Shown one piece after another: positions 29,401 to 59,791 of a stretch of DNA of 64,000 nucleotides. Every line of letters starts with the position of its first letter. Within the stretch, counting starts at the first letter, position 1. The stretch comes from Longimicrobiales bacterium (GTDB lineage: Bacteria > Gemmatimonadota > Gemmatimonadetes > Longimicrobiales > Gaopeijiaceae), in the NCBI GenBank assembly GCA_965115885.1, contig OZ220479.1:1732334-1796333 (forward strand), in the 5' to 3' direction. A model generated the notes under the pieces. It was given only the letters and a program-made list of their open reading frames with translations, ran no database searches and was not told the origin of the DNA. Position numbers and translations under genes: made by a program.

Positions 29401-29752
29401 GGAATTCGCGGACCGCCTCGAGGTCGGGAAGCCGATCCGGGTCCTGGAAGAGGTGGTGCAGGGCGATGAGCGTGTGCGTCTTGCCGCCGCCATAGGTCAG
29501 CTCCAACTGGCGGACGGCCTTGTCGCTCCTGCCCGCCAGCCGCGTCGCCACGTCCCGGACCAAGTCGCGGAGCGCCAAGGTCGGATACGTCAGAGCGAAG
29601 AATTTCTCGGGATCTTCGTACAGCGGACGCCGACCGGCCCGGCTCGCGACTTCGTGGAGATCCGCGGCGAACTGGGAGAGCGACAGCTCTCCGGTGCGCA
29701 ACTCGGCCTTGAGCGCTACGGCGTGGTGCCAGGGAGCGGGAGCGGAGGGCAT
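26405..29752 (-). CDS. DUF499-family ATPase (defence-associated, partner of DUF1156 methylases)
   Basis: 1115 aa. N-terminus: PWHHAVALKAELRTGELSLSQFAADLHEV..YEDPEKFFALTYPT. P-loop-like motif: TYGGGKTHTLIALHHLF. Also LLDEVMMY. Confidence 0.8.
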   Translation of the reverse strand: MPSAPAPWHHAVALKAELRTGELSLSQFAADLHEVASRAGRRPLYEDPEKFFALTYPTLALRDLVRDVATRLAGRSDKAVRQLELTYGGGKTHTLIALHHLFQDPDRLPDLEAVREFRGHADGALPQAATAALCFDKIDVEKGVKDVRGPGGETRTLRHPWSVLAFQLAGVEGLRVLRDGDAANERDTPPAEPLLVEVIERQQKADGRATLILLDEVMMYARAKNALDQAWVDRLQYFFQALAQAVAKVDRTAIVASLLATEPEKTGDEAGKRVLRDLANVFQRQREEGIQPVGKGDVAEVLRRRFFEPGSIENPTSLRPHAIGVVKGIAGIDETTKRERGRAEKRFLANFPFHPDLTDVFYTRWTGIEGFQRTRGILRTLAIALRDAEAWKDPNPLVGPAVLLNEPGTGTVSEAIRELAGIATKETVRGKTTDWVPLLEKEMEKAREAQEEFPSLGAFRELEQAVAAVFLHSQPPGWKARTNQLLRLVGSAGPDLIELRKGLRRWRDTSWFLDDEDEDARSGDAHGLPGTWRLGNAPNLRQMHDEACKDQVAAEAVDERLGAEIRKTASLWSGAAAAAAGAQVHKLPRSPGDVEDTVRFRFAVLGLDATSSSGKPSKAARSFLDRAAGSDRPRAYRNAVVLAVPSPEGADAARSKARSLLGWEVVQTHLAARRIDPVRRERLRRHVRAAAAELSGVVRQAYGIAVTVDERNRVRAFKLPGSDRPLFEEIKNHRKARIVDTPLNPEALLPGGPYDLWERDDEARLASQLSESFARYPRLPKVLRPELVTGTVLGGVRGGLFAARLKRPDGSARTWWREDVESVAADDDQLEIVLPAKARLARLNPSLLEPGELPGLWVSGSEEDFEPLAVEKLIEYFAGGHVATVAREGYEDRLPIPACPRDAVLQAVTEAVEDGTLWVTNPPATAWKEPVPVGTLQPGAELRAPPERVAPQDLAREALPDAWSENRTNGLALTQALCRKRSAAVPWGAVREGISAAVDARWLVRPQGSGPVECTYDQAPKVILEKPEAATAIPPGSDPPIRPPGAPVPPDSVALDHAQMQDLLDRVPELLRAVGSAELRFDVRVSARGELADERGERADGILGEVAPGLKLARK

Positions 29753-29892
29753 GGCGGGTGCTGGACTCGGTTGGGATCGGGAGAGGGCGCTCTCGGGATG
29801 GCGTGGACGGCGACGAACCCGGCCTAGAGCGGACGGGCGGCTTGGACCCGACCCTGCCGCTCCGGCAATCTACCGGGTGCGGTCGGCGCCTC

Positions 29893-34699: not shown

Positions 34700-35071
34700 C
34701 GCCAGCCCCCCGACCTGACCGCACTCGCGTTGGAGGGCGAACGCCTGGGGAAGCGTTGGGCGTGGGCCTGGAATGAGAGGGTCCGGCGCGTTGAGATGGA
34801 CGTGATCGGAACCGGCGAACCGGCGGCAGTGCTCGCCCGAGGCGACGCGGCGCCGGTTGCCTCGGTTGTTCCATCGGGCGGGGCTTGCCGGAAAAGCCGA
34901 GGTTGCCCCCGACCTGTCCAACGAATTAGGACCACCTCACTTGGGGTGCGAATGCGGAAGGTTGCACATCGTCGGCAGAAGTCGTATCGTGGTATCGGAG
35001 TTTCCGTTGACGTCCATACACGACAGGTTCAAGATGTCATGATTCACTTTGCCGCGCGTACTTGCACAATA

Positions 35072-38000: not shown

Positions 38001-39175
38001 TTCCAGTCCGGTGCAGGGCGAGACAGTTGTCGATTTTGAAAGATCTGCTTCATGCCGCCTTACGTCATGCCGACAAAGCACAACTCCTGAAATTGATCGA
38101 AGAAAAGCTCGCTTGCAAGAGCATGAACTCTGGCCAGAAGGTGTACTGGCTTGCGGCCGGACTGTTTGCGAGGTCTGAAATCTACGGCGAGCGGCTGGTA
38201 TCGTATGTATCCGGAAAGCGTCGGGCGCTCCGGATATGCCGATTGATGGAAATGACATTGGATCCACGCTCCGCGCCGTTGGCGATGAGCGCGACAACCC
38301 TTAAATGGCTTGTTCACCTGATTGGGCCACATTCTTCCGCGCCGCCGAGGAGCGGAGAAATCTATTCGGTGACGTTGCCGATACAAGCGCATCACCGTCT
38401 TTGCGGCTTCATCGACCGGCTTGCGGAGGATGCTTCACTCGAGGCCATGCATGCACTCGAGTCACTGGCTTCGGACGACCGGCTCGTCAACTGGCGGCCG
38501 ATGCTTCTTGATCGCCTCCATAAACAGATGAGTATTCTCCGGAAAACCACCTACCAGCACCCGACTCTTGAACAGGTGGCCGAGGTCTTAGACAACGGCC
38601 CACCTGCCAACGCGGCGGATCTCTGGGCCCTCACCGTCGATGTGCTACACCAGATTTCCGAGGATATCCGAAATGGGGCGACATCGGATTGGCATCAGTA
38701 CTGGAACGTCGACCGATACGACCGGCCAGAAGTACCGAAACCGGAAAACGCCTGTAGGAATGCCTTGTTGTCCAAATTGGAGCAAGCGTTGGCCCCCTTC
38801 AAGGTTGACAGCACAGGAGAAGGTTCGTATGCGGACAGTAGACGCTCTGACATTCGCATCTCCATCCCAGGATACAACATCCCGATCGAGATCAAGCGGA
38901 GCTGTCACGCCAAATTGTGGAGCTCTGTAAACACCCAGCTCATCGACATGTACACCCGCGACCCCGACACCGACGGATACGGAATATATCTAGTTTTCTG
39001 GTTCGGAGAGGCCATCCATTGCAAACCTAAACTTGAACCGGCGTCGAAAAGAAAGCCGCAGTCACCGGAAGAACTTCGAGAAGCACTGGTAGACCGGCTG
39101 AATTGGCAGGAGCGCCGAAAGATCGCGGTCTGCGTGATCGATGTGTCGAACCCGAGAGATCAGACGGAGGTTTGA
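35072..39175 (+). CDS. Giant NACHT/STAND-like P-loop NTPase with C-terminal PD-(D/E)xK-type nuclease-like domain
   Basis: - Walker A: LLGPPGSGKT.
- Walker B: TLFIDGLDEM.
- NACHT-like segment: LLSNPQNLRML.
- About 1000 aa of helical repeat-like sequence.
- C-terminal E..RRSDIRISIPGYNIPIEIKRS..GIYLVFWFG (D-x13-ExK).
- In-frame alternative ATGs at 34952 and 35039.
- The 34730-34950 part of the track ORF is repeat-derived. Confidence 0.8.
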   Translation: MRKRRREITSSKSHDLESQPLASFRGEAVYVLLGPPGSGKTEAFRREAEREHGLYITARNFITFNFDPEWERKTLFIDGLDEMRAGATDRRTPFDAIRRKLHCMSCPRLRLSCREADWFGATDRERLEEAMPHRNVQVLRLDPLSDQGVLEILERNHGVEDPAAFVAVARERGVASLLSNPQNLRMLTEAVDDAGDWPRTKTETFDMACRKLVSEKNHDHRIALPSSASTQALMDGAGHLCALLLLAGKDGVTLPGTASDGNYPDISGISIVDRSCRVVATNLFASQSEGRMVPVHRHVAEFVAARYLANLIAGGLPVCRILSLMTGFDGGVISEFRGLAAWLAVCSKPAREALIRRDPIGVVRYGDAETFSVYDKAQVFRALRAETVRNPWLASQIPLDSLWGRLVDPCLEPELNRALADPARDEAHQSFVLLILAAISSRPVVPGVGDTLMAIVRDTSWPTMHRCAAVEAYAQNRRRDHQGLSALQSLINDVYSSKVPTLDDDLLGTLLTELYPDELTPCDLVGFLRKPAQSGHFTRYVAFWLDGLIKSSTVAQMAQLLDLLRTPMKKARTEAGNARPHVNVVGFPAQVPLALLRHLLENAPESVSRKQVLHWLDFAGWIREGQSVSFVNRVTNAEFFSNWLGAHPEIQKAIIEKGANRCPEAHDPFRWMHRVKQSLFEATLPPDYAVWCADQALIAGNGNIARWFVGEAAAFIHYQFTSDAPEKKKVACKLQSDARLLMMFEKILLVHMESQDQLMQQDGSSHSHPLTNDGRFDELRKYTRANVSTLRANQCLPALLNHLAMAYLDNFLDVRGETPEDRLRCLLGPDDTLLCAARTGLRGAIHRTDLPTWIKILELADNKQTHLLAYPFMIGLDECSRTENEEIQLTEHQIRLGLSIHLAVPRLSHMHSTEHPPRWLCTAVAKRADVVATTWSYCVRRQLRKGVEILPDTYPLSHAAAYAPLASKVSLPILSTFPVRCRARQLSILKDLLHAALRHADKAQLLKLIEEKLACKSMNSGQKVYWLAAGLFARSEIYGERLVSYVSGKRRALRICRLMEMTLDPRSAPLAMSATTLKWLVHLIGPHSSAPPRSGEIYSVTLPIQAHHRLCGFIDRLAEDASLEAMHALESLASDDRLVNWRPMLLDRLHKQMSILRKTTYQHPTLEQVAEVLDNGPPANAADLWALTVDVLHQISEDIRNGATSDWHQYWNVDRYDRPEVPKPENACRNALLSKLEQALAPFKVDSTGEGSYADSRRSDIRISIPGYNIPIEIKRSCHAKLWSSVNTQLIDMYTRDPDTDGYGIYLVFWFGEAIHCKPKLEPASKRKPQSPEELREALVDRLNWQERRKIAVCVIDVSNPRDQTEV

Positions 39176-39512: not shown

Positions 39513-40328
39513 GGGAGCATACCAGGTCGCTGGGCGGGCCGAGGACTCGGGCGAGTCTCGTCCAACGGCGAATGAGGCCGAATTCGGGGGTCGTGGCACC
39601 TTTGGAGCATGGTCATGATTCTCCACCTCTCTCAGATCCGCATTCTCGTCCCCCTTCGAGCACCACCGGGGCCCGTGCCAACCGACTCCGACGGGTATCG
39701 GGCGATGCTCGCCTTCGATCTCACGGCGAGCTACTGCGCGTGGGTGTCGATGCACGGGGACGTGCGGCGCAGGCGTGAGCCGCTGCTTGGCGGCGGCTGG
39801 GCGTGCCGGTGCTCGAGGTGGCCGGGCCGGATCGCGTGCCCCCAAAGGGCGCAGAGGAGGACGACGCGCTGGACGCGGTCGCGGCGGCGCAGGCCGGTCG
39901 CGGCGGATACGGAGTCCGCGTGGCCAAGGACCGCACCGGCGCCGTCGAACGCACGGCCGGTGGTTCGTATCACGGTAAGGACTGGGGTTGCGTATTCCAC
40001 GGATGTGGTCCAGCTGTTCCAGGGGATGTGATCCAGCCAGTCCAAGCGATGTGATCCACTCGCCGGCGGCTCGTAGTGGACGGTTGGGGCGGGGATCCTG
40101 AAGGGGTGCTGGATACGATCTGGTCGAGATTGTTACCGGGCGTCAGAGATTACACACAAATTGGCGCGTGAAAGTGCACACTTTTTGGCGTTTGTGCACA
40201 CCTGGCGTCTGACGCGTTTTCGGGGCCTGCGGCTGGCGGCGGGCGTCGGCGCCGGGACCTCGAGGGGGGTGTCTTGGAGCGAACTCGTCGGTTACGCGTT
40301 CCCGGTCCACTTCAACCGGGGAGGCGCA

Positions 40329-41342
40329 ATGATCGACGAAGGCAGGAAGGTTCGAGCGAAGAGGCTCTTGGCGAACGGGGTGTCCAAGAGGGCGACGGCG
40401 GCTGCAGTGGGGGTCGCGCGGCGGACGCTGTACAACTGGATCGCCCGCGACTGGGCGGGGGTGAAGCGCGCGCCGGCGCGGAAGTCGCGGCTGGACGACT
40501 ACAAGCCGTTCATCGACGCGCGCTTGGCGGCGTATCCGAAGTTGAGCGCGGCGCGGCTGTACGAGTCGGTGCGGAGGTCGGGGTTCGAGGGCAGCTACAG
40601 CGTGGTCGTGCGGTACGTGCGGGGAGTGCGTCCCTGTCCGGAGCCGGAGCCGGTGCAGCGGTTCGAGACGGAGCCTGGGCGGCAGGGGCAGGTGGACTTC
40701 GCCGAGTTCAAGTTCCCGTGGGGCAAGCGCTACGCGCTGGCGGTGGTTCTGGGCTACTCGCGGTGGCTGTGGGTTGGCTTCTACGAGCGCGAGACGATGG
40801 CGGCGCTGGCGGACGGGCTCGAGCGGGCGTTCGCGGCGATGGGCGGCGTGCCTGGGGAGCTGCTGTTCGACCAGATGAAGGCGGTGGTGAACTCGGACGA
40901 GCGTCCGGCGGGCGGGAAGCTGATCGAGAACGCGTCGTTCCGGGGGTTCGCCGATCACTGGGGGTTCAGGATCCGGGCGTGTCGTCCGTACCGCGCGCAG
41001 ACGAAGGGGAAGGTCGAGCGGCCGATCCGGTACCTGCGGGAGAACTTCTTCTACGGTCGGGAGTTCGCGAACGACGAAGAGGTGAACGAGCGGTTGCGCG
41101 GCTGGTTGAGCGGGGTGGCGAACGTCCGGGTGCACGGAACGCTGAAGGAGAGGGTGTCGGATCGGTTCGAGCGCGAGCGGCCGCTGTTGCTGCCGCTGGC
41201 GCCGCGTGGCTACCGGTTCGTGACGCCGAGGCCGATGCCGGGGGAGAGCGGGGATGCGGACGTGGCGCCAGCGGAGGCGCCTGCCGTGGACGTCGAGAAG
41301 CGTCCGCTGGCGTACTACGCGGATCGGCGGAGGGGTTCGTGA
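40329..41342 (+). CDS. istA: IS21-family transposase IstA
   Basis: The ATG is preceded by GGGGAGG. N-terminal HTH, then a DDE core (QVDFAEF..LAVVLGYSRW..LFDQMKAVV..RPYRAQTKGKVER). Confidence 0.92.
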   Translation: MIDEGRKVRAKRLLANGVSKRATAAAVGVARRTLYNWIARDWAGVKRAPARKSRLDDYKPFIDARLAAYPKLSAARLYESVRRSGFEGSYSVVVRYVRGVRPCPEPEPVQRFETEPGRQGQVDFAEFKFPWGKRYALAVVLGYSRWLWVGFYERETMAALADGLERAFAAMGGVPGELLFDQMKAVVNSDERPAGGKLIENASFRGFADHWGFRIRACRPYRAQTKGKVERPIRYLRENFFYGREFANDEEVNERLRGWLSGVANVRVHGTLKERVSDRFERERPLLLPLAPRGYRFVTPRPMPGESGDADVAPAEAPAVDVEKRPLAYYADRRRGS

Positions 41343-42175
41343 AGGGGGCGAGCCTGAGGGATCGGATCGCCGCGCAGCTGGCCGACTTGAAGATGCCGGG
41401 CGCGCTCGAGGCGCTGGACGAGGTGTTCAGGAGCGTGGACGGCGGGGGCTGCACGGCGGGCGAAGCGATCGAGCGGCTGCTCGGGGCGCAGATCGAGCTG
41501 CGCAACGGCCGGCGGCTGTCGGCGGCGATGCGGTCGAGTCGGTTGCCCGGACTGAAGACGCTGGCGGAGTTCGACTTCGCGTTTCAGCCGTCGATCGATC
41601 GTCAGCAGGTCGAGTCGTTGCACGAGCTGCACTTCCTCGAGCGCAAGGAGAACGTGGTGATCCTGGGTCCGCCGGGAGTCGGGAAGACGCACATCGCGAT
41701 CAGCCTGGCGGTGGCGGCGGCTGAAGCGGGGCGGCGGATCTACTTCGGGACGCTGGCGGCGCTGATCGAGTCGCTCGAGGAGGCGCACGCGGCGGGGCGG
41801 CTGAAGCGGCGGTTGAAGACGTTGATGCACCCGGCGCTGCTGGTGGTGGACGAGATCGGGTACCTGCCGGTGACGTCGAACGGGGCGCGGCTGTTCTTCC
41901 AGCTGATCAACGGGCGCTACGGTCGGGCGTCGACGGTGTTGACGTCGAACAAGCCGTACCAGCAGTGGGGCGAGGTGTTGCACGACGAGGTGATGGCGGC
42001 GGCGCTGCTGGATCGGCTGCTGCACCGGAGCCACACGATCAACATCCGGGGCAACTCGTACAGGATGCGACGCCACAAGGAGATCTCGAGGGCGATTCAC
42101 CCGTCGGCCGCGGCGGTGCGGGACGCTCGAGACGAGGCGCACACGGACGCGCGGAGAGGAGGAGGCGGGTCATGA
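41339..42175 (+). CDS. istB: IS21-family helper ATPase IstB
   Basis: GTG in a GTGA overlap with the istA stop. Motifs: GPPGVGKTHIA (Walker A), LLVVDEIGY (Walker B) and LLDRLLHRSHTINIRGNSYR. Confidence 0.92.
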   Translation: MKGASLRDRIAAQLADLKMPGALEALDEVFRSVDGGGCTAGEAIERLLGAQIELRNGRRLSAAMRSSRLPGLKTLAEFDFAFQPSIDRQQVESLHELHFLERKENVVILGPPGVGKTHIAISLAVAAAEAGRRIYFGTLAALIESLEEAHAAGRLKRRLKTLMHPALLVVDEIGYLPVTSNGARLFFQLINGRYGRASTVLTSNKPYQQWGEVLHDEVMAAALLDRLLHRSHTINIRGNSYRMRRHKEISRAIHPSAAAVRDARDEAHTDARRGGGGS

Positions 42176-44032: not shown

Positions 44033-44800
44033 TCAACCGAGCAGAGTTTTGCCAACGCTTTCGACGAATGGGCGGTCGATATCTCGAACATCAATCTTCC
44101 ATGCATCAATATATTCTCTTATCGGGTCCTCCGAGACAGGAAGGTGTCGAACGGCATTCCATCCATGTCTATTCTTTTCGAACAACGGAAGTAGCATGAG
44201 AGCGACGACACCGTTTTTTATTCGAATATAGGGGTCCATTCGTAGTTCGCGTTCGTTTTTCGATACCCAAGAACTAAAAGGAATTGTTGGCACGGCCTTT
44301 TGCCATTTAGATATTTTGCACTCCACATATCTATTCAATGATCCAGAATAAGAACTAGGGAATTCATCAGGCGGGTCAATCTTCCAGATTTTTGCCATCC
44401 GACGGAGGACAAACAACGACGCAAGTTCGCAGAGCGATTCATGGAACCACCCGTTCGGGTTGTCTTTCAATCGATCATGCCCCGACAGGACATGGCAAAA
44501 TTCATGAGCAAACTGATATGTAAATTGACTCCAACTTTGATCTTTCGCCGAAAGACCTATCTTGTGTATTGTAGTGTTCGGAGGTCTATGATAAGCTATA
44601 GGATCTTCCTCCTCGGGTAGACTCATGACGTGAATTATGCCCACGAGCGGTTCGCGCAATTCCCGCTCAATGTGGGACGCCACATCGCACAACAGCCTCT
44701 TGATTTCGGCACGGGACACTGCGCCCCAATCGCCGTCCAGCACCTCTATTTGCATATCATCTCCCGTGAAGTGAAGTGAACCACTGATTTCATATGACAT
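44033..44800 (-). CDS. HExxH-x18-E (gluzincin-like) putative metallopeptidase
   Basis: FAHEFCHVLSGHDRLKDNPNGWFHESLCE: the E lies exactly 18 residues after the second His, in a WxxE context. An alternative start is MQIEV at 44755, preceded by GGGAG. Hand-counted 60-nt samples give 37-48% G+C. Confidence 0.7.
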   Translation of the reverse strand: MSYEISGSLHFTGDDMQIEVLDGDWGAVSRAEIKRLLCDVASHIERELREPLVGIIHVMSLPEEEDPIAYHRPPNTTIHKIGLSAKDQSWSQFTYQFAHEFCHVLSGHDRLKDNPNGWFHESLCELASLFVLRRMAKIWKIDPPDEFPSSYSGSLNRYVECKISKWQKAVPTIPFSSWVSKNERELRMDPYIRIKNGVVALMLLPLFEKNRHGWNAVRHLPVSEDPIREYIDAWKIDVRDIDRPFVESVGKTLLG

Positions 44801-45124: not shown

Positions 45125-45181
45125 AGTTGAGGCGAAGAACGAGCGGATCGACGCGCAGCCGGCTCGCTTACGGCTGAGCGA

Positions 45182-48100
45182 CTATGCCGCTGGCGTGACG
45201 AAGTCGTCGCGCATCCGAAACGCGGCAGAAGACCCGACCTCGACAAGGCAGTCGAGGATGAAAAGCACCGCGTCACGGATACGGTTGTCGCGCTTGAGTT
45301 CGAGTGGCCGTCCATAAACGTACCGTTGCAGCAGCACCTCAAGCATAAAGACCGTGTCCGACTTGGCGAACATCTTCTGCGTGTTGCCGCGCTGTAGCGC
45401 GTCGCCTACGCGCACGAACGCATCGGGTAGCGAGCGTTCCCCGACGTGATAGAGAAACCGGGCGTAGTTATCGAGAACGACGGCTGTGGTCGGGAGGGCT
45501 TCGAAGAGGGCGTGCACAAGATGCGCGTGGCCATCGAGAAACCGCCAGTGCCGGACATCGTCCTTCCAACCCAACGTCAGAAAAACCGCCGACAACAGGT
45601 GAGTGCCATCTGGGTGCCTGTCCGTGTCCAGACCGGCAAGCCACTTCGCGCGTTTGACCGCGTCGGCGATGAGTTTCCACAGGAACCAATACTGGCACGT
45701 GTTCGGGTTTCCATCCTGCAGACGTGTCAATCCCTTCATGACGGATCCAAGCTCATAAGAGTGGCGGTCAACGGTCGCGAGCAGAGGGGCCAATACCCGC
45801 TGTGCAGCTTCTGGACACGTCCGCAACGAGAATTCTTGAATGCGGCCGGACACCTCGGATTCAGTATGTAAGTCCCTGTGGCCCCCGTTGCTGCGGTCGT
45901 CATTGGACGTCCACCAGCTGGCGAGCGTAAGGCTCGCACGGGCGAACGCGGTGATTGCGATCGGGTCTTGCGGCACGTGCCCCAGGATCACGAGCATGCG
46001 CTTGACCGCACGTGCACCGAAGCCGTCGGAGATGTCGAGCGTGACGTGTGCATCCTCAGCAATCCCGCCGTCCTTCCAGAACCGCGCCCGGATCTCCCCA
46101 GTGGTTTCCAGCTTGATCTGGTCCAGACTGCGGCGCTCATCATGAGGACGCGCGCGCTCGGCGTCTTGCGCCCTATCGATAGTGGCAGCTTCGACCGCAA
46201 TCGCGTTGACGCAGCGCAGGGCGAGCGCCCGCTTGGCGGCCCAGACGGTTTCGTCGATGCTCCATGTCGCGTATGACCGCACCTGCTCCACCGGATGTGT
46301 CAGGGCGGCGGCAAAAGCGGTCTTCACCCGTTCAGTGCGCGTTGGGTCGAGCGGCTTGCGGAGCAACTTCGCCAGCACGGAGGCGCCGACCCTGTCGGCG
46401 GCCATGGGATTGTTCTGGACGCGCTCCGTGCGATCGGTGGCGTCGGCGTGTCGCATGACTTCCGTGCAGACCCTATCGACGCACCAGTCTCTTTGCGCCG
46501 ACATCATGTCGTCCCAGCGGTCACGGATACAAACGGCGGCAACAACGCCAGGCGCGTGCCGACTGTCGTCCTCGTCTTCGACTTGGCCGTCCATGGCCTG
46601 CGCTTCGGACAGCTTCGCCGCCCATTGTGCGGGGTCGTACTTGCCCGTTTCGCCGCGGAAGGCCTGCCTACCCCACATGAGCAAGCCGAATCGTGCGTTC
46701 ATTGTCGCCAGATGAGCGGCGCTTTCATCGACGATTGCCTGCAGGTCCGCCTCAGGCGGCGTCGGATCGAGGCGAACGTAGTGCCGCGGCGAATCACCTG
46801 CCCTCGATTGTGAGTCAGGGATTTCGGGGCCAGGTGTATCCGAAGCGGAGTATTGGCGGAGATCCATGCGATGGATAGCGAGGCGCCACAAGCGGTCGCC
46901 TTCGTCCTGTTGCTCCCTCGGCGGCAACGCCGCCAGATGGTTGTCGAGGAGAGCGTGGACACGGGGCTTGAGCGGCCCGAGCTGGAGATTTGCAACCGCC
47001 GTCTCCAGGTCCTTCTGCCGATGCGGCAAGGCGTCCGCCTGCTTGCGTTCCATCCCGTAGATCTGGTGGTCAGCGAGCATCGTCGGAATCATGGCCGCCA
47101 TCCGCGTCATCTGGAGCTCGCCCGCGAGACGGCTACGGTCCATTGCAACGTAGTCGCGGACGCCGAGGAGCACCAGCAGAGCTTCGCCGGACGCGTGCGG
47201 GTAGGCGGTAGCCACGCTCGCGACGACAGCGGCGAGCGCTGAGTTGTCGGTGCGGCGCAGGATGTCGACGAGAATGGCATCCAGCCGTTTCGGTTCTTGC
47301 TGCCCGACCTCGAGCAGCCAACTCTCTAGCGCCATCAGCATCGACTGGAGCCGATAGGGTGCGACCTCCATACCGCGGTAGGAGCCCCACAAGCGGGTAT
47401 TCGTCCACTGTTTGCGCGTCGTACCGTCCGCGAACGTGAGTTCGACTTCCCAAGCTTTCTCGAGAGGGTAGTGCAAACGGGGATGCGCGTACCAGTCGGC
47501 GCTATGGTTGAAGACCTTGATGTAGAAGTCGAGAGCCTTCTCCGAGTGATGCCGCAACAAGTTGGTCCATGGGCCGCGCACTGCGCTCGCCGGGAACGTG
47601 TCGCGGCGTAGATCTTCCTTGATCCCGAAGTACAGCTCGATATCGAGAGGACAGCGCCTGTAGCGGCGCTCGTCGTCGATGTCTTCCTCCGAAGCGAGCA
47701 GATAGTCCGCACCGACTGAGATGACGACGTCCGGCAGATCGCGCGCTGCGGGCATGCCATCGGTACCCGTGTAGATGAGCCCTTGGAAGTCCTCCGCTAT
47801 AGCGCTGCGGTGTTCTTCCACCTCAATATTGCTGCGCAACGTCGCCTCGAAGCGCGCGGCGTCGCCCTTGGGGAGCTTGGCGATGACCTTGAGCACGCGC
47901 TTGCGCGGCTCGTCGCCTCCGTAGCCGCGCAGGCCGTCGAGGAGCCAATGGGCGATACCGATGACATCGTCGGCGCCATCGAGATCGGACACCGACCCGG
48001 TCACACCGCACACCGCGTCCTCTACAAGCCTGAGCAGGAGCGCTCGCTCGTTGGCCGTGAAGGCTGCGAGATTGCGATGTACGAGCCGCAACACTGCGGG

Positions 48101-50350
48101 CCAAGCAGCGCCATCTGGCACGTTGAGGAGCGAGCTCCGTCCGCCAAGGCGGGAGAGCCGGTCGGGCGTCTTCACGCAGGCCACGCGCAACAGATGAATG
48201 ACGCGCTGCAGAAGTGTGCGGTCGTTTGCGAGCAGTTGCGACTCGTGGCGCGCGAGAAAGCCGAGCGCTGACGGTGCCTTTAGCAGCGACACCAGGGTAT
48301 CGTCGCGGAACTGCTCGCTGATTTCGGTTTCCGACACGGCCGCCAGAAACAGCTGATCCGCAACCGCCGCATCACGATCGATCAATTCGGCCACCCACTT
48401 GCGATACGAGCGGCGCACGGCAGGGTGCGTTCCGATGGCGTGGGAGAGCGTCTCGAACGATGCTTCGGAAAGATGCTGCTCCTCGAGCCATTGCAGGATG
48501 GCCCAGTCCTCGAGCACGTCGTGGGCCGTCGCCACTAGCAACGGATTGTCGTCGGGGGACGTGATGAGAGAGTCGCCGCGCAGAGACTCGACCACGGCAG
48601 CATCGAGGCCGGTCGCAGAAATGTAGGCAGAAAGCGCCTGCGCGCGCCGTACGGCAATGCTCTGCAGCACCTCTTCGCGCGGCCGTCCCATGGCGGGCAC
48701 CACACGGTCGCCGCCGCGCACGATCTCGCGCCAGAAGAGCGCACGGAATGCACGTTCGGTCTGCGGAAGCGATTTTTCGGAGGTCCATGGGATGTCGATC
48801 GCTTTGTCGAGAACAAAGGGGTTGCGCAGGAGGTCGCGCAAACCCGGGCTCTTGAGAGGAATGGCGAGCCCTGGATATGCGACCTCCGCTTCCGTGAGTT
48901 CGGAATCATCGAGCGGCGGAACGCGGACGACCTTGTGGTTGATGCCGTGCGGCTGCAGAAAGCTCGCGCGCACCTGTTCGACCGAGTAGTCGCGGCAAGT
49001 GAGCAAAATGCGAAGGCCGCTGTCGTCCGCCGCCAGCGTAATGAGGTCGGTAAATGCGTCACGCGTTGTATTCTCGAGCAGGCGCTCGACGCTCTCCACA
49101 AGGACGACCTTGCGTTCCTGCGCACCGAGAATGGCGCGCAGTTTGGCCCAGTTCGCAGGAACCTGCGCGGCGGCCAGCGTGGCGTCCAGATGCGCCTGCG
49201 CGAATTCCTCAACGCGAAAGCCAAACAAGAAATGATCGGAGGCGAGCACGCGGACAGCGTCCTTGCCCACGGCTGACTTGCCGCAGCCGGCCGGTCCAGT
49301 CACGAGCACGATCTGAGCGCTCTCGAGCGAGTCGAGTAACTCCTGCACGAGTGCCGCGCGTGGCAGATGAAGATCGTCCCCGAGCCTCGAGCGTATTGCG
49401 CGTAGGACGGGTTCGGTGTGATCGCCAACCGCCTGGAGCACGCGCCGTTCATTCGTCCCGATGACGCCGTGGCGCGCCAGCGTGGCGGCGGGGAGGTCAT
49501 CGCGGCGCAGGCTGCAACTGGCAACCATCGCCCTGCTTGCCGCTACGATCAACTCGTTCCAGGAAGCGCTGGCGCTCGCCTCGGCGTCTCCGTCCGTCGC
49601 CGTGAAGGCGAGCATGCTCTTAACGTGCGCTTCCGTCTGTCCCGTCGAGCTGTGGAGGTCGAGGCTCAGCACGTGGAGAGTGCACAGGAACGGCCAGATG
49701 TCGGCTGCCGTGACGGGTTTTCCCTCGACATCGCCGATGATATTTTTCAGCACGGCGCAGTAGCGCACGGCCTCTTTTGAGATGAAGCCTTCGGTGGCGA
49801 GGCGCTCGTCGAACTCGATGCCGCCACGTGCGGCCCGCGCGCAATCTAGGAGCCCGACGAAGTGCTCGAGAAGCGTGTTCGTACCGCGCAGCGTGACAAG
49901 CGCGAGGCGGTCGTGTTCCTTTGAAAAGTGCGAGCCGTTGAAGTCATTCCAGAAATCGGTCACGGTCTGCACGCACGCCTGGTCCGACGCGCTGACTGTG
50001 AAGCTGCGTTTCACTTGGCCGGGGAGATGGCGTAACACGCCACCGGCCGTGCAACCCACCAAGAAGTCGTCGGTATGCCAGCCCAGACGCCCGGTCTGGA
50101 AGCCCACCTCCGCGACTGTGGTGTCGATCGCGATTGGCGGAATCGCGCCGACCAGAAGCTGCGCTAGCCAGTAGGCGCCGACATGCTGCTCAAACGTGGG
50201 CCCGGCACCGCCGGTGGAGGCGGGACTAGACACGCGCGCCGTAGTCCCGTCGACCGGCGGCGCGGTGCCGCCCGTGGCTGAATCAGCGTCACTGGTCGTG
50301 GCGTTCATGCTCGGAGTACGGGGTGAATCTCTGACGAAGATGTTGCTCAA
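45182..50350 (-). CDS. Avs-like giant STAND NTPase with N-terminal Cap4/DUF4297-like nuclease-like domain
   Basis: - N-terminal GGAGPTFEQHVGAYWLAQLLVG..EVGFQ..HTDDFLVGC-x11-GQVKRS (E..D..QxK).
- Walker A: VTGPAGCGKS.
- Walker B-like: KVVLVESVERL.
- LLRNPFVL.
- More than 1100 aa of helical C-terminal region.
- Start is TTG at 50350 or ATG at 50308; neither has an SD. Confidence 0.8.
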   Translation of the reverse strand: MSNIFVRDSPRTPSMNATTSDADSATGGTAPPVDGTTARVSSPASTGGAGPTFEQHVGAYWLAQLLVGAIPPIAIDTTVAEVGFQTGRLGWHTDDFLVGCTAGGVLRHLPGQVKRSFTVSASDQACVQTVTDFWNDFNGSHFSKEHDRLALVTLRGTNTLLEHFVGLLDCARAARGGIEFDERLATEGFISKEAVRYCAVLKNIIGDVEGKPVTAADIWPFLCTLHVLSLDLHSSTGQTEAHVKSMLAFTATDGDAEASASASWNELIVAASRAMVASCSLRRDDLPAATLARHGVIGTNERRVLQAVGDHTEPVLRAIRSRLGDDLHLPRAALVQELLDSLESAQIVLVTGPAGCGKSAVGKDAVRVLASDHFLFGFRVEEFAQAHLDATLAAAQVPANWAKLRAILGAQERKVVLVESVERLLENTTRDAFTDLITLAADDSGLRILLTCRDYSVEQVRASFLQPHGINHKVVRVPPLDDSELTEAEVAYPGLAIPLKSPGLRDLLRNPFVLDKAIDIPWTSEKSLPQTERAFRALFWREIVRGGDRVVPAMGRPREEVLQSIAVRRAQALSAYISATGLDAAVVESLRGDSLITSPDDNPLLVATAHDVLEDWAILQWLEEQHLSEASFETLSHAIGTHPAVRRSYRKWVAELIDRDAAVADQLFLAAVSETEISEQFRDDTLVSLLKAPSALGFLARHESQLLANDRTLLQRVIHLLRVACVKTPDRLSRLGGRSSLLNVPDGAAWPAVLRLVHRNLAAFTANERALLLRLVEDAVCGVTGSVSDLDGADDVIGIAHWLLDGLRGYGGDEPRKRVLKVIAKLPKGDAARFEATLRSNIEVEEHRSAIAEDFQGLIYTGTDGMPAARDLPDVVISVGADYLLASEEDIDDERRYRRCPLDIELYFGIKEDLRRDTFPASAVRGPWTNLLRHHSEKALDFYIKVFNHSADWYAHPRLHYPLEKAWEVELTFADGTTRKQWTNTRLWGSYRGMEVAPYRLQSMLMALESWLLEVGQQEPKRLDAILVDILRRTDNSALAAVVASVATAYPHASGEALLVLLGVRDYVAMDRSRLAGELQMTRMAAMIPTMLADHQIYGMERKQADALPHRQKDLETAVANLQLGPLKPRVHALLDNHLAALPPREQQDEGDRLWRLAIHRMDLRQYSASDTPGPEIPDSQSRAGDSPRHYVRLDPTPPEADLQAIVDESAAHLATMNARFGLLMWGRQAFRGETGKYDPAQWAAKLSEAQAMDGQVEDEDDSRHAPGVVAAVCIRDRWDDMMSAQRDWCVDRVCTEVMRHADATDRTERVQNNPMAADRVGASVLAKLLRKPLDPTRTERVKTAFAAALTHPVEQVRSYATWSIDETVWAAKRALALRCVNAIAVEAATIDRAQDAERARPHDERRSLDQIKLETTGEIRARFWKDGGIAEDAHVTLDISDGFGARAVKRMLVILGHVPQDPIAITAFARASLTLASWWTSNDDRSNGGHRDLHTESEVSGRIQEFSLRTCPEAAQRVLAPLLATVDRHSYELGSVMKGLTRLQDGNPNTCQYWFLWKLIADAVKRAKWLAGLDTDRHPDGTHLLSAVFLTLGWKDDVRHWRFLDGHAHLVHALFEALPTTAVVLDNYARFLYHVGERSLPDAFVRVGDALQRGNTQKMFAKSDTVFMLEVLLQRYVYGRPLELKRDNRIRDAVLFILDCLVEVGSSAAFRMRDDFVTPAA

Positions 50351-50719: not shown

Positions 50720-53855
<3,136 letters not shown>

Positions 53856-53859
<4 letters not shown>

Positions 53860-55463
53860 AGGGCGGACTCCAGGAGAGCCTTGGCGTCCGGGACTTGGAT
53901 CTCGCCGGAGACGAGCTTCGGGAGGAGGGTGTCGCGGAGTGCGACGAGGGTGCGAATGCTCATTTCACTAGCGACTTGCCGCGTCAGCATCCCTGAAAAC
54001 GTGCCGGATAGCGCCGCTATCACACGTTTCGGGGGGACAGCGCAAAGAGCTTCGGTCAGGTGATGCCTTCGGATATGGCCCATGGTTGTCGCCTTGTCCT
54101 GGGCGATTCTCTGAAAACGACGAAGATGCGATAACAGCAAGTGAAGATACAGCCACTTCGGATATTGACCAGATGTAACCTTGAAGAGGTGCTGGTTGAG
54201 AGCCGCTTGCCCACCGCACCACACTCGTACAAGCAAGCTGCCCGACCATGAAAAAAGAACATCGCCGTCCTCGATGACGCACTCCGGCTTGATCGCGCTA
54301 CTCGCCCATTCACCGCTATTCGCTTCACCTGCTCGCAACTGGGCAATCTTGACCACCGGCAATCGTGACTCCCCCTCCTGGGGGCGGTATTTCTGAAGAG
54401 CCAATCCATTCTGAAATCGTGCGATCACATCCAATGGAGTCACTTCCCAGCCTTCTGGAATCTCCCCCATCTCAGAATCCACCAGCCGGTTGGGGAACAG
54501 GTCGGCGACGTCCTGCGGCAACCCCGGGTCGCGACCCTCCATCTTCGCCCGGACCGGATCGAAGTCCACGAACCACGACTTGAACAACGCCCGCGCCATC
54601 CCCTCCAACGTCTCGTTCATCCGACGGTTCAACTCGATCTTGTCGTCCAGCGCGCCCAGCACGTGCGCGATGGCGCGCTGCTCGGGGAGGGGCGGGAGGT
54701 TAAGTCGAATCTGCTTGAGCGCGGACCCTGAAAGTTCCCGAAATGTCGACCCCGAAGCATGACGCTCAAGCTCCGACGTGTTCAGTTTTAGCCAGTAATA
54801 GAGAAATTCTGGAAACACGCCGTCTCGAACAACGAGGTTGCGAAATCCCTGGTTGGTGGAAATGGCATTTTTTGCGAGCGCAACATATCCGATTGGAGCG
54901 CGCGTAGAGAGCAATACGGCTCCTGCAGAAAGCAACTTTGCGGACGAGCTATCGAGTCCTTGCTGGGACAAGTTGCGCTCTCCACGTTCTATGTAGCGGT
55001 TATGGGGACCCGAGAGATCTCGAGGCGTCAACCAGGGTACTACCCCACCGAAGTTACGGGCGTTCTTGGTTGAAGGCGTGCCACCACCGACAATGTCCGC
55101 GATGTCTCCGATGGAAACATCCCGCCAGCCAGTACTAGGCGGAGCGTCCAACACCACGTACTCCCGCTCGATCTCCCGTTGGAACTTCTCCGGCAACCGC
55201 GCCCAGTCCCGCGCTTCGACCAGAATCGGGATCGCCGACTCGCGAATAGCGGCCTCGAATTCGATCAGCCGCTCCCAAGGGAGCTCCTGGAGCCCCGGAC
55301 CCCGGAGGACGAGATTCAGATCGCTGCCTTCATGACCCCGGCCATTCACGCGACTGCCGTAGGCCCACATCTCGACTTCGGGCAGGTGCTCGCGCAGTAG
55401 ATCCTCGAGGATGCGCCGGTGTTGCGGAGCAAGGTGCAGTCGGTCAGCCATCGTTGGTCCCAT
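53856..55463 (-). CDS. hsdS: Type I specificity subunit HsdS with an N-terminal MNT-type nucleotidyltransferase domain (in-frame fusion)
   Basis: - Residues ~1-105: NTase fold ([30 protein letters not shown]).
- TRD1: [21 protein letters not shown].
- Central conserved helix: [32 protein letters not shown].
- TRD2, then the C-terminal helix.
- Alternative ATG at 55451. Confidence 0.85.
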
Positions 55464-55573: not shown

Positions 55574-57115
55574 TCACCGCGCCGGACCGAACCCGAGCGC
55601 TCGAAGATTCTCGTTGATCGCCGCGTCCAGCCGAGCGCCCTCGGCCTGCTGATCGCGGAGTTCGACCGCCAATCGCTCCATCTTCTCCTCGAACGGTTCT
55701 CCGTCTTCCGCCCGGGGCTCGACGCCCACGTAGCGACCGGGCGTCAGCACGTGGTCGTGCCGACCCACCTCCTCCACGGACACGCTCCTGCAGAACCCCG
55801 CCGCGTCCGCGTAGTCGTCGTCCCCCAGCCTCCATGCGTGGTAGGTCCCGGCGATCCGGGCGACATCCTCGTCGGTCAGCTCGCGATGCGTGCGATCCGC
55901 CATCCGACCGAGCTTCCTCGCGTCGACGAACAGGATCTTGCCTCGCCGCTCCCGACCCCGCGCCACGAACCACAGGCACACCGGGATCGGCGTCGAGTAG
56001 AACAGCTGACCAGGCAACGCGACCATGCAGTCGACCAGGTCGGCCTCGATCAGGTTCCGTCGGATCTCGCCCTCCCCGGACTGCATCGACGACATCGAGC
56101 CGTTGGCCAGCACGAACCCCGCCACGCCCTTCGGCGCGAGGTGGTGCACCATGTGCTGCACCCAGGCGAAGTTCGCGTTGCCCTTCGGTGGGACGCCGTA
56201 GCGCCACCGCTTGTCCTCGACCAGCCGCTCGCCGTCCCAGTCCTTGTCGTTGAAGAATGGATTCGCGAGGATGAAGTCCGCTTTCAAGTCCGGGTGGCGG
56301 TCGTCGTGGAAGCTGTCGCCGTGCTCGATTCGTCCCCCGATGCCCCGGATAGCGAGGTTCATCCGGGCCAGCCGCCAGGTCGTGTGGTTCGACTCCTGTC
56401 CGTAGATCGAGATGTCGAGCGCCTTCCCGCCGTTGCCGTTGCTCGTCGCGTGGGCGCGGATGAACTCGGCCGACTGCACGAACATGCCCGCCGAGCCGCA
56501 GCACGGGTCGTAGACCCGCCCCCGGTACGGCTCGATCATCGCGACAAGCAACTTGACGACGCTGCGCGGCGTGTAGAACTCGCCTGCCCTCTTGCCCTCG
56601 GCGCTGGCGAACCGCGAGAGGAAGTACTCGTACACGCGTCCGAGCACGTCCTTCGATCGCGACTCCGCGTCCCCGACCCGGATGTTGCCGACCATGTCGA
56701 TCAGCTGGCCCAAGCGCTGCTTGTCGAGACCCGGGCGAGCGTAGTCCTTGGGCAGGACCCCCTTGAGCGCCCGGTTCTCGTGCTCGATCGCCGCCATGGC
56801 GCTGTCCACGGCTTGGCCGACGTCGGGCTGCCGCGCCCGATCCCTCAGGCGCGTCCAGCGTGCGTCCTCCGGCACCCAGAAGACGTTCTCCGCAATGTAC
56901 GCGTCGCGGTCCTCGACCCATTCCGGACCCCACTCGGCCAGCACGGCCGCGCGGCGCTCCTCGAACGCGTCGGAGACGTACTTGAGGAAGATCAGGCCCA
57001 GCACGACGTGCTTGTACGACGAAGCGTCCATCGAGCCGCGCAGCTTGTCGGCCATCGCCCACAGCTCGGCCTCGTAGCCGGTCGTGGCCCCGCCGTCGGT
57101 TCGTTTGGCAGGCAT
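55574..57115 (-). CDS. hsdM: Type I N6-adenine DNA methyltransferase subunit HsdM (atypical motifs I and IV)
   Basis: HsdM N-domain ([29 protein letters not shown]), then GEFYTPRSV, motif [12 protein letters not shown] and motif IV LANPFFN. SD GGAGGGGA precedes the ATG. Confidence 0.9.
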
Positions 57116-57175: not shown

Positions 57176-59791
57176 TTATGAAGGACCCAAAAAGCGCTCA
57201 CCGTCGAAATGGATGAGATGGCTCGGAGCATCGGCGCACCACACCTCGGTTTCCCAAGAGATCTCGCTCAGATGACGCCCCATTACAGTTCGGTTCGGAA
57301 AAGCGGTGACATAAACGATACCAGCTTGTGCGACACCGAACAACTGAGCCAGTTCGTTGTGACGTTTGGCATTCACTGGCCCATGGCTCGTGACCGCTTC
57401 GACGAGGATGAGCCAGTTCTTTTTGCGGAAATACAGAACGACATCCGGCATTTTTCCGTGCTTGTCGACGACAACGCCGAGCTCCACAAGGATCTTCTCT
57501 TCGAAGAGCTCGCCCCCAGCATCGCCCACATAGACGACTTCGGCGCCAGGCGCGAACCGAGGAGCGAACGAAGTAAGAATTTCTCCGATGAGTTCGCTGT
57601 GTTTGCCTGGCGTGAGCGCCAAATAATGGTCCTTTGCCACTTTGACGGGGATCATCTGCATAGCGCGATTTCGTGCCCGCCTCGCCTCGAGCGAGGGCCG
57701 TCGACCGATCCACTTCTCAACGGCCGCCTCCCATTCCGAAGTGCCGAAGGTCACCGCGACATCCAAGGCCTCTTCGCTGATCCGATAACAGGCTTTTGGG
57801 CTGTTTACGGGGCGGGCAGGATTGTCGGGGTTGTACAGAGCGATTCCGGCTTCCACAAACTGGTGCATCGTCTGCCTTCGAAAAGTCTCACGGGTATTCG
57901 GAGCGTAGGCCCTTCCGTAGTGCTTTCGGGCGTAGTCCATGATCGGCGTGATGCCCATGAGGGGCCGATCAAGCCGATTCCATGACCCGGCAGGCCGGAG
58001 GTCGACCAAGGCAAGCAACGTCAGTGCCGAGCGGTCGTTCTGTTGGCCGCGGGGCATCCCGAGGGCCTTCAGGACCGCTGTCGCTTCGTCCATCTTGCGC
58101 CTTGCCGCCAGCGGGTTCTCGTCATGCGTCATGTGTGCGACCTCCCCTTCGATGATCGTGTCGACCGCCTCCTGCGAAAGCTCGGCAACATCGTATTTTC
58201 TTCCAAGCCGTTCGAGGGTTGCGTGGTCCGGATAGCGCAAACGCCGCAGATCGGTCGCGTTGACTTGAGTGTGTCCGTTGTATTGTCTGAAATAGCGGTC
58301 TACCAAGCTGGCATTCAGAAAAAGAGCGAGCCCCCGGGCGAGCTCTTCCGGCATGCCGGCACGACGCAAGTGAAAAACGTTGAGATGATTCTCGAAACCG
58401 ATCAATTTGCCGGGGAGATTCGAAGCGTAGACCGAGGCGACGATGCGCCGCCGTTCTTCCTTGGAGGTGAACCGCCGCACGACGACGTAGCTACCCTCGT
58501 TCGGCCACAGCCGCCTGACACTAGCGTCGGATACGCGAATCGCATTCGGTTTCCGCGACGCCTTCGGCCATGAGGTCCGCCCGCCTTCGAAATGGGCTGG
58601 GTAAAGAAGCGGTACCGCTCCATTTTCCGGCATCGTGCGCAAGTCGTCCTTGAGACGGAAATCCACCACGGGTCCTGTAGAAACCTCGACGCCGAGAGTT
58701 GCCAAGCTCGTGGTGAAACAGGCCATTCGGTCCACAATGCTCTGTTCAATGCCGTCGGCGGCGATGTGTACGAAACAGTCTGGATCGTTGTCGCAGATTA
58801 CCGAATTAAGTGGGACCGTTCGCTGAGTCAGATCTTCAGCGGTGCAGACGCCCCGCACTGGATCGAATTCCAATGCGTTTCCGCCGCTTGTCGTGATCGT
58901 CACATCTCCCGACGTTTCTCCCTTGACCGCGTGCACGATGACGTTCTCTTGAAGGACGTCGTCGTCTTTAAAAGCGTGATCGCGCTTCTCGAACACATGT
59001 ATCTGGCGCAGACGCATCATCGAGAAGAACTGTTGTCGGAAAGGCCGGAAGTAAGGGCCATTGCAAAACGAGCGAGGTACGATGGCAACCATCTCGCCAC
59101 CATGGCACAACTGCTTCGCGGCCAGAAACATGAAGCCGGTATACAAATTAGAAGTTTCGAGACCCGCTCGGCGAAGTGCACCACGATGCGCCGAGTCCGC
59201 TCTGATCTTCCGATAGGGTGGATTGAGAATAACGTGGGTGAAGCCAACTCCACCGACGGCGCTGTCGCCGAAAGAGCCCGGCACGCGTGCGTCGCTGTGT
59301 TCGAGGATGAAATCCGCGCTGAGGAGTTGGCTAGTCGCCTCGATCCGCGCCTGCTCACACCGTGTCTCCACACGCAGAAGAGTGTCGGAGAGATGGTCTG
59401 ACAGTAGCGAATCGACCTCGTAGCAGACGAATTCAACGGAGCGTGGAGGAGTCGATTCTCTGCAAAACCGCTCGGCGAGTGCGACCGTGAGGGATCCAAC
59501 TCCCGCCCCGGGATCCAAGACTCGGAGGTTTCCGAGTCTTTCCGAGAACAGATTTGCCATGAACCGGCTAACGCGGATCGGAGTCATGTACTGGCCCAGC
59601 ACGGCACGCCTGCTGGGTTCGAGTTTTTGCGAGACAACGATACGGGAGAAGTCGACCGCTTCAGCAAGTGCGTCGACGGCCCCTACACCCGATTCCGCCC
59701 ACAAAGACCTTTCGGGGAGCAAAAAAGCCGGAAGGCTGACGGAGGGCAAGTCGCTCTGGAGGGAGCCACGGACGGAACCTCTTGGGGTCAT
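57176..59791 (-). CDS. Fusion protein: Eco57I/PstI-type gamma N6-adenine MTase (N-terminal) + BsuBI/PstI-family restriction endonuclease (C-terminal)
   Basis: - MTase module: VLDPGAGVGSL (motif I), VILNPPYRKI (motif IV), NATDLRRLRYP.
- REase module, from about residue 567 (nt 58093): LKALGMPRGQQNDRSALTLLAL, YAPNTRETFRRQT, LILVEAVTSHGPV, ISWETEVW..HLIHFDGERFLGP.
- SD GAGGAG precedes the ATG at 59791. Confidence 0.8.
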   Translation of the reverse strand: MTPRGSVRGSLQSDLPSVSLPAFLLPERSLWAESGVGAVDALAEAVDFSRIVVSQKLEPSRRAVLGQYMTPIRVSRFMANLFSERLGNLRVLDPGAGVGSLTVALAERFCRESTPPRSVEFVCYEVDSLLSDHLSDTLLRVETRCEQARIEATSQLLSADFILEHSDARVPGSFGDSAVGGVGFTHVILNPPYRKIRADSAHRGALRRAGLETSNLYTGFMFLAAKQLCHGGEMVAIVPRSFCNGPYFRPFRQQFFSMMRLRQIHVFEKRDHAFKDDDVLQENVIVHAVKGETSGDVTITTSGGNALEFDPVRGVCTAEDLTQRTVPLNSVICDNDPDCFVHIAADGIEQSIVDRMACFTTSLATLGVEVSTGPVVDFRLKDDLRTMPENGAVPLLYPAHFEGGRTSWPKASRKPNAIRVSDASVRRLWPNEGSYVVVRRFTSKEERRRIVASVYASNLPGKLIGFENHLNVFHLRRAGMPEELARGLALFLNASLVDRYFRQYNGHTQVNATDLRRLRYPDHATLERLGRKYDVAELSQEAVDTIIEGEVAHMTHDENPLAARRKMDEATAVLKALGMPRGQQNDRSALTLLALVDLRPAGSWNRLDRPLMGITPIMDYARKHYGRAYAPNTRETFRRQTMHQFVEAGIALYNPDNPARPVNSPKACYRISEEALDVAVTFGTSEWEAAVEKWIGRRPSLEARRARNRAMQMIPVKVAKDHYLALTPGKHSELIGEILTSFAPRFAPGAEVVYVGDAGGELFEEKILVELGVVVDKHGKMPDVVLYFRKKNWLILVEAVTSHGPVNAKRHNELAQLFGVAQAGIVYVTAFPNRTVMGRHLSEISWETEVWCADAPSHLIHFDGERFLGPS

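Follow-up and report, generated by a model that had tools for sequence, protein, structure and literature searches.

In the antiphage STAND NTPases Avs3, Avs4 and Avs7, a phage ligand relieves autoinhibition and drives ATP-dependent tetramerisation, and within the tetramers the nuclease domains, of Cap4 or Mrr type, pair up as active, DNA-degrading dimers (PMC13581612; bioRxiv 10.64898/2026.08.25.746987). Here we describe a gene on the minus strand of a 64,000-nucleotide stretch of DNA (hereafter the window) from a Longimicrobiales bacterium (GenBank assembly GCA_965115885.1, contig OZ220479.1, positions 1,732,334 to 1,796,333), whose product very probably belongs to the Avs4 (AVAST type 4) family and carries a Cap4-like nuclease as its effector. 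The closest comparison is with Escherichia coli Avs4 (EcAvs4), whose structure has been solved bound to the portal protein of phage PhiV-1 (PDB 8DGF): both are single-gene systems, both are STAND NTPases with Walker A and Walker B motifs that align, and homology is colinear from the NTPase to the end of a sensor with a shared predicted fold. The two differ in their effectors, EcAvs4 carrying an Mrr-type nuclease of ~180 amino acids (aa) and the window protein a predicted Cap4-type domain of ~290 aa. An Mrr-type N-terminus is not defining for Avs4, because Avs4 homologues with other effectors have been described (PMC12642450). In SsAvs4 and AtAvs4 from that study, an Avs4 sensor is combined with a swapped effector (a trypsin-like protease with Pepco or MBL), which shows that the effectors of Avs4 can be exchanged and that homologues in distant phyla still sense portal. 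Those systems consist of two genes with protease-activated effectors, whereas the window system comprises one gene, in which the nuclease is fused and beside which no gene is conserved.

The predicted effector has its counterparts elsewhere. SeAvs3 (8DGC) and SeAvs7 resemble the window protein in fusing an N-terminal Cap4-type PD-(D/E)xK nuclease to a STAND NTPase, but bind the large terminase (Avs3) or the major capsid protein (Avs7) through TPR sensors, whereas the window protein has an Avs4-type sensor, and its nuclease domain has no detectable sequence similarity to theirs. The same nuclease fold and D...(E/Q)xK arrangement recur in Cap4 of CBASS, LmuA of Lamassu, HamA of Hachiman and DUF4297 of HerA-DUF4297. 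All four are activated by oligomerisation, but their partners are SAVED, SMC-like, helicase or HerA proteins rather than a STAND NTPase, and the window domain falls outside the Pfam DUF4297 model.

The gene and its assignment to Avs4

An uninterrupted open reading frame (ORF) spans 45182..50350 on the minus strand, with 1722 codons when counted from a TTG. The probable start is instead the ATG at 50308 (MNATTSD...), giving a protein of 1708 aa, because the L004 orthologue begins exactly there and the closest relatives share nucleotide sequence homology only up to 20-35 bp upstream of it. Residue numbers refer to this 1708-aa protein, whose parts are as follows:

45182..50308, minus strand: gene assigned here to the Avs4 family, 1708 aa plus stop (translation, PADLOC and NCBIfam Avs4 models, EcAvs4 in 8DGF, orthologues; the maximal ORF reaches the TTG at 50350)
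50213..50308, minus strand: N-terminal leader, aa 1-32, weakly conserved and probably disordered (predicted local distance difference test, pLDDT, <50; variable in alignment A1)
49439..50212, minus strand: predicted Cap4-like PD-(D/E)xK nuclease effector domain, aa 33 to ~290 (AlphaFold model and Foldseek)
50189..50191, minus strand: E40, an invariant glutamate in helix alpha-1, motif TGGxGxxFE
50066..50071, minus strand: D80-D81 at the beginning of strand beta-2, the putative metal-binding 'D' of PD-(D/E)xK
50009..50017, minus strand: Q98-V99-K100 at the end of strand beta-3, the '(D/E/Q)xK' motif, with K100 the putative catalytic lysine
48209..49438, minus strand: STAND NTPase module, aa ~291-700, C-terminal boundary approximate (Pfam nSTAND1 and EcAvs4 alignment)
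49274..49303, minus strand: Walker A / P-loop VTGPAGCGKS, aa 336-345, aligned with EcAvs4 VSGEGGVGKT
49079..49108, minus strand: Walker B region VVLVESVERL, aa 401-410, aligned with EcAvs4 VIVVDSAEKL
45185..48208, minus strand: Avs4-type C-terminal sensor, aa ~701-1708 (Avs4 models, 8DGF alignment, AlphaFold and Foldseek)

Pfam detects only nSTAND1 in the protein (aa 316-474, E 1.1e-9) and nothing outside this STAND P-loop. The PADLOC Avs4 model matches in a single stretch, protein residues 288-1703 corresponding to model positions 163-1569 of 1570 (E 4.7e-132), and no other PADLOC Avs model, Avs1, Avs2, Avs3 and Avs5 included, gives a match at E<=1. NCBIfam NF041815 ('AVAST type 4 anti-phage nuclease Avs4') aligns over model positions 157-1577 of 1579 (E 6.3e-140, 467.8 bits). 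A phmmer search of all PDB sequences returns 8DGF as its sole match (E 1.1e-68), in an alignment that pairs residue 291 of the window protein with EcAvs4 residue 183 and extends, with a C-terminal part covering EcAvs4 1406-1585, to residue 1585 of 1587. Within it, the NTPase module matches EcAvs4 (8dgf_A) residues 183-573 at E 3.9e-21, and Walker A, Walker B and, downstream of Walker B, LLRNPFVL (aa 493-500; LIKNPFYL in EcAvs4) align residue for residue with the solved protein. In alignment A2 the G, G, K and S of Walker A are nearly invariant, as is ERLLE of Walker B.

The sensor was modelled with AlphaFold on the basis of 70 aligned family members, with residues 637-1708 included (pLDDT 90.6; predicted template modelling score, pTM, 0.88), and its C-terminal ~1000 aa are predicted to form a mostly alpha-helical solenoid with small beta elements. 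When this model was compared with the PDB using Foldseek, both chains of 8DGF, that is Avs4 bound to the PhiV-1 portal, were matched with a template modelling (TM) score TMq of 0.76 (8dgf_B: E 5.9e-32, 1120 aligned columns, 20% identity). Generic solenoids such as exportins and importins follow, at E ~2e-5 and TM<=0.25, and Avs3 (8DGC) is absent among the top matches. The PADLOC, NCBIfam and 8DGF sequence matches, taken together with the match in sensor fold, therefore argue strongly for assignment to Avs4.

An earlier reading, made from the sequence alone (the sequence-only reading), had proposed an Avs-like STAND NTPase with a large helical C-terminal region and an effector-NTPase-sensor logic, and each of these features is borne out by the models and matches above. 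All the motifs it quoted are present in the translation of the ORF: GGAGPTFEQHVGAYWLAQLL at aa 33-52, AEVGFQTGRLGWHTDDFLVGC at aa 66-86 and GQVKRS at aa 97-102, besides the NTPase motifs already given. It had considered the protein unassignable to any of Avs1-5, a position superseded here, since the PADLOC search and the structural comparison of the C-terminal region, both of which it had suggested, single out Avs4 and portal-bound EcAvs4 respectively. It had also foreseen that the protein might simply be a member of a described Avs clade, hence not novel though correctly typed. This is what was found: the gene is correctly typed but is an ordinary Avs4 member.

Two observations weigh against a straightforward transfer of EcAvs4 function to the window protein. 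The NF041815 score is far below the equivalog cut-off of 1500 bits, and identity in the sensor is only ~20%. The model behind the first of these extends over the Mrr-type N-terminus and evidently derives from proteins close to the enterobacterial ones; a score below its cut-off means that the protein is not an equivalog of Mrr-type Avs4, and does not place it outside the Avs4 family. Taken together, the low identity and the low score do mean that portal specificity is extrapolated, and by analogy the phage portal protein is a reasonably likely, rather than a secure, candidate for the specific trigger. The same two observations would suit an alternative in which this divergent clade of Avs4-like STAND nucleases senses a different phage protein, or several, with downstream activation remaining the same. 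Such a shift has precedents of a kind: certain Avs sensors, such as KpAvs2, recognise a number of unrelated proteins (PMC11564622), and Avs11, which has an unrelated fold, also senses portal, so that trigger and fold are not strictly coupled. We nevertheless consider sensing of a non-portal protein rather improbable, as the entire sensor superposes on portal-bound EcAvs4 and as portal still activates the Avs4 homologues of Streptomyces and Acinetobacter, which carry different effectors and come from hosts phylogenetically far from E. coli (PMC12642450).

With portal as the presumed trigger, the gene would constitute a single-protein antiphage system of the Avs4 family, whose steps can be sketched from EcAvs4, SeAvs3 and SeAvs7. 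In the uninfected cell, the protein would be an autoinhibited monomer. During infection, the sensor would wrap a newly made monomer of the phage portal protein, and this binding would lift autoinhibition and permit ATP-dependent tetramerisation through the NTPase. Tetramerisation would then join the N-terminal nuclease domains into active dimers, which would cut double-stranded DNA indiscriminately and so abort the infection.

A predicted Cap4-type nuclease at the N-terminus

The first ~290 residues lie outside every Avs4 model and outside the EcAvs4 alignment, all of which begin at ~288. An AlphaFold model of this N-terminal domain, built from 32 homologues, has a pLDDT of 83.5 and a pTM of 0.80, with residues 1-32 disordered. 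The predicted fold has a helical subdomain after a core of alpha-beta-beta-beta-alpha-beta order. Significant Foldseek matches to this model are confined to Cap4-type PD-(D/E)xK nucleases from four defence systems, each with a probability of 1.00:

LmuA of Lamassu (9hr5_A): E 8.6e-5
Cap4 of CBASS (6wan, 6vm6, 6wam and 6vm5, comprising AbCap4 and MoCap4): E 2.6e-4 to 3.8e-3, with AbCap4 (6wan/6vm6) at ~3e-4
Cap4 domain of SeAvs3 (8dgc_A), Avs3: E 6.7e-4, the highest TMq, 0.49, over 265 columns
HamA of Hachiman (8zue_A): E 4.7e-3

Below these, the list falls to unrelated proteins with TM ~0.1, and EcAvs4 (8dgf) is missing from the top 50 matches. The domain is thus predicted, on its modelled structure, to be a Cap4-type PD-(D/E)xK nuclease that replaces the Mrr-type nuclease of EcAvs4 and acts as a putative DNase.

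Conservation was assessed across 76 representatives of full length, taken from clusters at 50% identity. E40, Q71, T79, D80, D81, D122 and D133 are invariant among them (E40 in 73/73 aligned sequences, D80 and D81 in 75/75), and Q98 (71/75), K100 (73/75) and W120 (73/76) are nearly so. In A3, a deliberately diverse alignment that takes in relatives at 25-28% identity and other architectures, E40, Q71, D80, D81 and K100 are still invariant. In the model, E40 sits in helix alpha-1, D80 and D81 come right before a strand formed by residues 82-88, and Q98-x-K100 ends a strand formed by residues 91-100, which is the canonical placement for a PD-(D/E)xK site as far as the predicted structure goes. 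In the DUF4297 nuclease of HerA-DUF4297 (BsDUF4297), the triad D41/E59/K61 is required, as established by mutagenesis (bioRxiv 10.1101/2024.10.24.620088), and the spacing D80-x17-Q98-x-K100 is identical to its D41-x17-E59-x-K61. The catalytic lysine of LmuA is K68 (bioRxiv 10.1101/2025.03.14.643221), to which K100 corresponds once the 32-residue leader is subtracted. The sequence-only reading had likened the N-terminus to Cap4/DUF4297 effectors on the strength of an E...D...QxK arrangement, and both the predicted fold and the conservation of E40, D80/D81, Q98 and K100 agree with it.

Several findings count against the nuclease prediction. On its own the domain finds no Pfam family at E<=0.1; a comparison of 32 members of its family with Pfam, relaxed to E<=10, returned no Cap4-type nuclease family and no DUF4297; and profiles from A1 and from the diverse A3 found no match to Cap4, LmuA or Avs3 among PDB sequences. 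As no sequence model matches, the link to Cap4 therefore depends on predicted structure, in which TM-scores are moderate (TMq 0.40-0.49 for the Cap4-type matches). The putative catalytic residues were placed by sequence and secondary structure rather than by three-dimensional clustering, and the middle residue of the motif is Q instead of D or E. One could read the missing sequence match, the Q in place of an acidic residue and the moderate scores as signs of a degenerate PD-(D/E)xK fold, retained for oligomerisation or regulation, or of an enzyme acting on RNA or another substrate, with killing achieved by another route. This is highly improbable: E40, D80, D81 and K100 stay invariant in relatives as distant as 25% identity, with Q98 hardly varying, and such conservation is the signature of an active site and not of a degenerate scaffold; the spacing equals that of the validated DUF4297 triad; and the protein contains no alternative effector domain, nor was any conserved partner gene found. 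A putative DNase of Cap4 type thus remains the preferred interpretation. On a less likely reading, the QxK site and the additional conserved residues Q71, W120, D122 and D133 could reflect a substrate or activation mode unlike that of canonical Cap4.

G73, where close relatives have E, was considered as an inactivating substitution and rejected, the position being variable in the 76 representatives (E in 22, G in 14, R in 14 and K in 11).

Distribution, mobility and exchange of the N-terminal domain

Searched exhaustively with a profile of the N-terminal domain, 1.84 billion representatives yielded 2,491 clusters at E<=1e-3, of which 443 reach E<=1e-30 (clustering at 50% identity). Among the best 150 matches, 101 of the 104 long proteins have the same Avs4 body, and all of those with at least 1500 aa (81/81) align past residue 1650. 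A scan of one genome per species identified 114 relatives, and numbers of this order place the feature well outside what chance would give. Colinear orthologues of ~1700 aa are present in ~60 genomes. Nearly all relatives are colinear ORFs of 1690-1730 aa, and their hosts include Gemmatimonadota, Acidobacteriota, Pseudomonadota (Pseudomonas, Paraburkholderia, Halomonas, Marinobacter and Methylomonas), Planctomycetota, Chloroflexota, Bacillota, Actinomycetota and a Methanothrix bin. A word-indexed protein search with the same domain as query returned only fragments of <=511 aa, whereas most relatives in the exhaustive search are ~1,700 aa long. Many of the short database entries look frameshifted or truncated at contig ends, and garbled C-termini are visible in alignment A1.

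The two closest relatives come from different phyla: one from a Longimicrobiales genome (84.5% protein and 88.6% nucleotide identity) and the other from a Vicinamibacterales genome (87.4% nucleotide identity). Nucleotide homology to them is limited to 45166-50342, in other words to the gene alone, and such high identity across phyla within the borders of a gene is the sequence signature of a putative horizontally mobile one-gene cassette.

The same N-terminal domain is found on other STAND scaffolds, namely a NACHT protein with an FGE-sulfatase domain and nSTAND1 proteins with HEAT repeats (P0174, P0231 and P0242). It also occurs in a NACHT protein encoded by the Polaromonas plasmid pPNAP05 (L081, 6004-11433) and in a Shewanella plasmid protein adjoining Abi and Sie genes. 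Its occurrence on several scaffolds means that the domain behaves as an exchangeable effector module, illustrating effector shuffling between STAND families. Through the Polaromonas protein, the domain further matches the first 245 positions of the PADLOC model 'DUF626_VIII' (PDLC02918; E 5e-20), an accessory protein of type VIII retrons that the literature describes only as a putative serine esterase (PMC7736814); effectors of these retrons may therefore carry a Cap4-like nuclease domain that has gone unrecognised. It is conceivable, if doubtful, that the domain is the founding example of a large Cap4-like nuclease clade that lacks a sequence model and serves as a plug-in effector on several scaffolds, with the signature TGGxGxxFE ... 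Q ... TDD ... QxK ... W.D.

No new principle follows from these observations, because it is already established that Avs scaffolds swap their effectors and that Cap4 nucleases are among those they use. PADLOC itself would label the protein Avs4. What is modestly new is this particular Cap4-like clade, which is without a sequence model and whose members are publicly annotated in uninformative terms ('hypothetical protein', 'AAA family ATPase'); in the literature surveyed, which did not cover Gao et al. 2022, there appears to be no study of a member that has an Avs4 sensor. The practical consequence is that widespread proteins of ~1,700 aa, in many bacterial phyla and in one archaeal metagenome bin, can be understood as Avs4-type sensors with a predicted Cap4-like nuclease, extending the known effector repertoire of Avs4. 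In present-day annotation pipelines they go by 'hypothetical' or 'AAA ATPase', and sequence models miss the nuclease domain, a gap that a hidden Markov model of the N-terminal domain would close.

The genomic neighbourhood

The window has a guanine plus cytosine (GC) content of ~70-73%, and the Avs4 gene lies within a stretch of lower GC (55-68%) at ~32 to 60 kb. The neighbouring features, from lower to higher coordinates, are:

26405-32637, minus strand: HmaB/DUF1156-type DNA methylase, 914 aa, and an ORF of 1115 aa (PADLOC HmaB, E 4e-81; weak 'anti-phage-associated DUF499' match)
34730-39175, plus strand: EruA-like NACHT protein, 1481 aa (NCBIfam NF058535 'NACHT domain-containing antiphage protein EruA', whole model, E 6e-273)
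40161-42175, plus strand: IS21-family element (istA transposase, E 8e-80; IstB ATPase, E 6.5e-77)
44033-44800, minus strand: HExxH ORF, 255 aa (FAHEFCHVLSG; weak Peptidase_M78 match, E 0.028)
51229-53859, minus strand: hsdR of a complete type I restriction-modification (R-M) operon
53856-55463, minus strand: hsdS of the same operon
55574-57115, minus strand: hsdM of the same operon, which lies upstream of the Avs4 gene, head-to-tail and on the same strand
57176-59791, minus strand: fusion of an N6-adenine methyltransferase and a BsuBI/PstI-type restriction endonuclease, 871 aa (PADLOC MTase_II, reported E-value 0; REase_II, E 9e-130)

The head-to-tail arrangement with a type I R-M locus noted in the sequence-only reading is evident from hsdM, hsdS and hsdR, and the methyltransferase-endonuclease fusion lies directly upstream of that operon. 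Moving from the Avs4 gene toward lower coordinates, one encounters the HExxH ORF, the IS21 element, the EruA-like gene and the HmaB/DUF1156-type methylase. As judged from these matches, the EruA-like ORF is a second STAND-type defence protein of the same island: it covers the whole NF058535 model at 909 bits (cut-off 1000), has no Pfam or PADLOC match and occupies the lowest-GC part of the island (56-61%). The HmaB/DUF1156 methylase and the DUF499-like ORF beside it may represent an Hma-like or DUF499/DUF1156 defence system. By its gene content, then, this surrounding of the Avs4 gene is a defence island.

This location bears on a further alternative, namely that this STAND NTPase serves a housekeeping or regulatory function that has nothing to do with phage defence. 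The uninformative public annotations leave room for such a role, but we regard it as scarcely credible in view of the full-length homology to a defence protein characterised both structurally and functionally, the predicted nuclease effector domain, the defence-island setting and a patchy distribution across phyla, in which the 87-88% nucleotide identity between Gemmatimonadota and Acidobacteriota genomes is confined to the gene. Defence against phage accordingly remains the favoured role.

The HExxH ORF, 380 bp downstream of the Avs4 gene in a local segment of low GC (55%), was considered as a partner, an association implied by the sequence-only reading in placing the gene alongside a small-peptide/metallopeptidase cassette. 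This candidate was rejected, as none of 80 related loci has a homologue (0/80) and nucleotide homology stops at the borders of the Avs4 gene. The only relatives found for the ORF are distant hypothetical proteins on Mesorhizobium plasmids, at 22-25% identity. A scan for promoters and terminators around the Avs4 gene gave signals no better than those in shuffled sequence.

The insertion site of the IS21 element lies between the Avs4 cassette and the EruA-like gene, and the segment at 40-44 kb has a strongly positive GC skew. In the type I R-M operon, the hsdS ORF begins with an in-frame N-terminal stretch of ~100 aa that precedes the specificity domains and has weak NTP_transf_2 / Polbeta / MNT-like matches; this stretch could be a fused or mis-started component of an MNT-type toxin-antitoxin pair within the operon.

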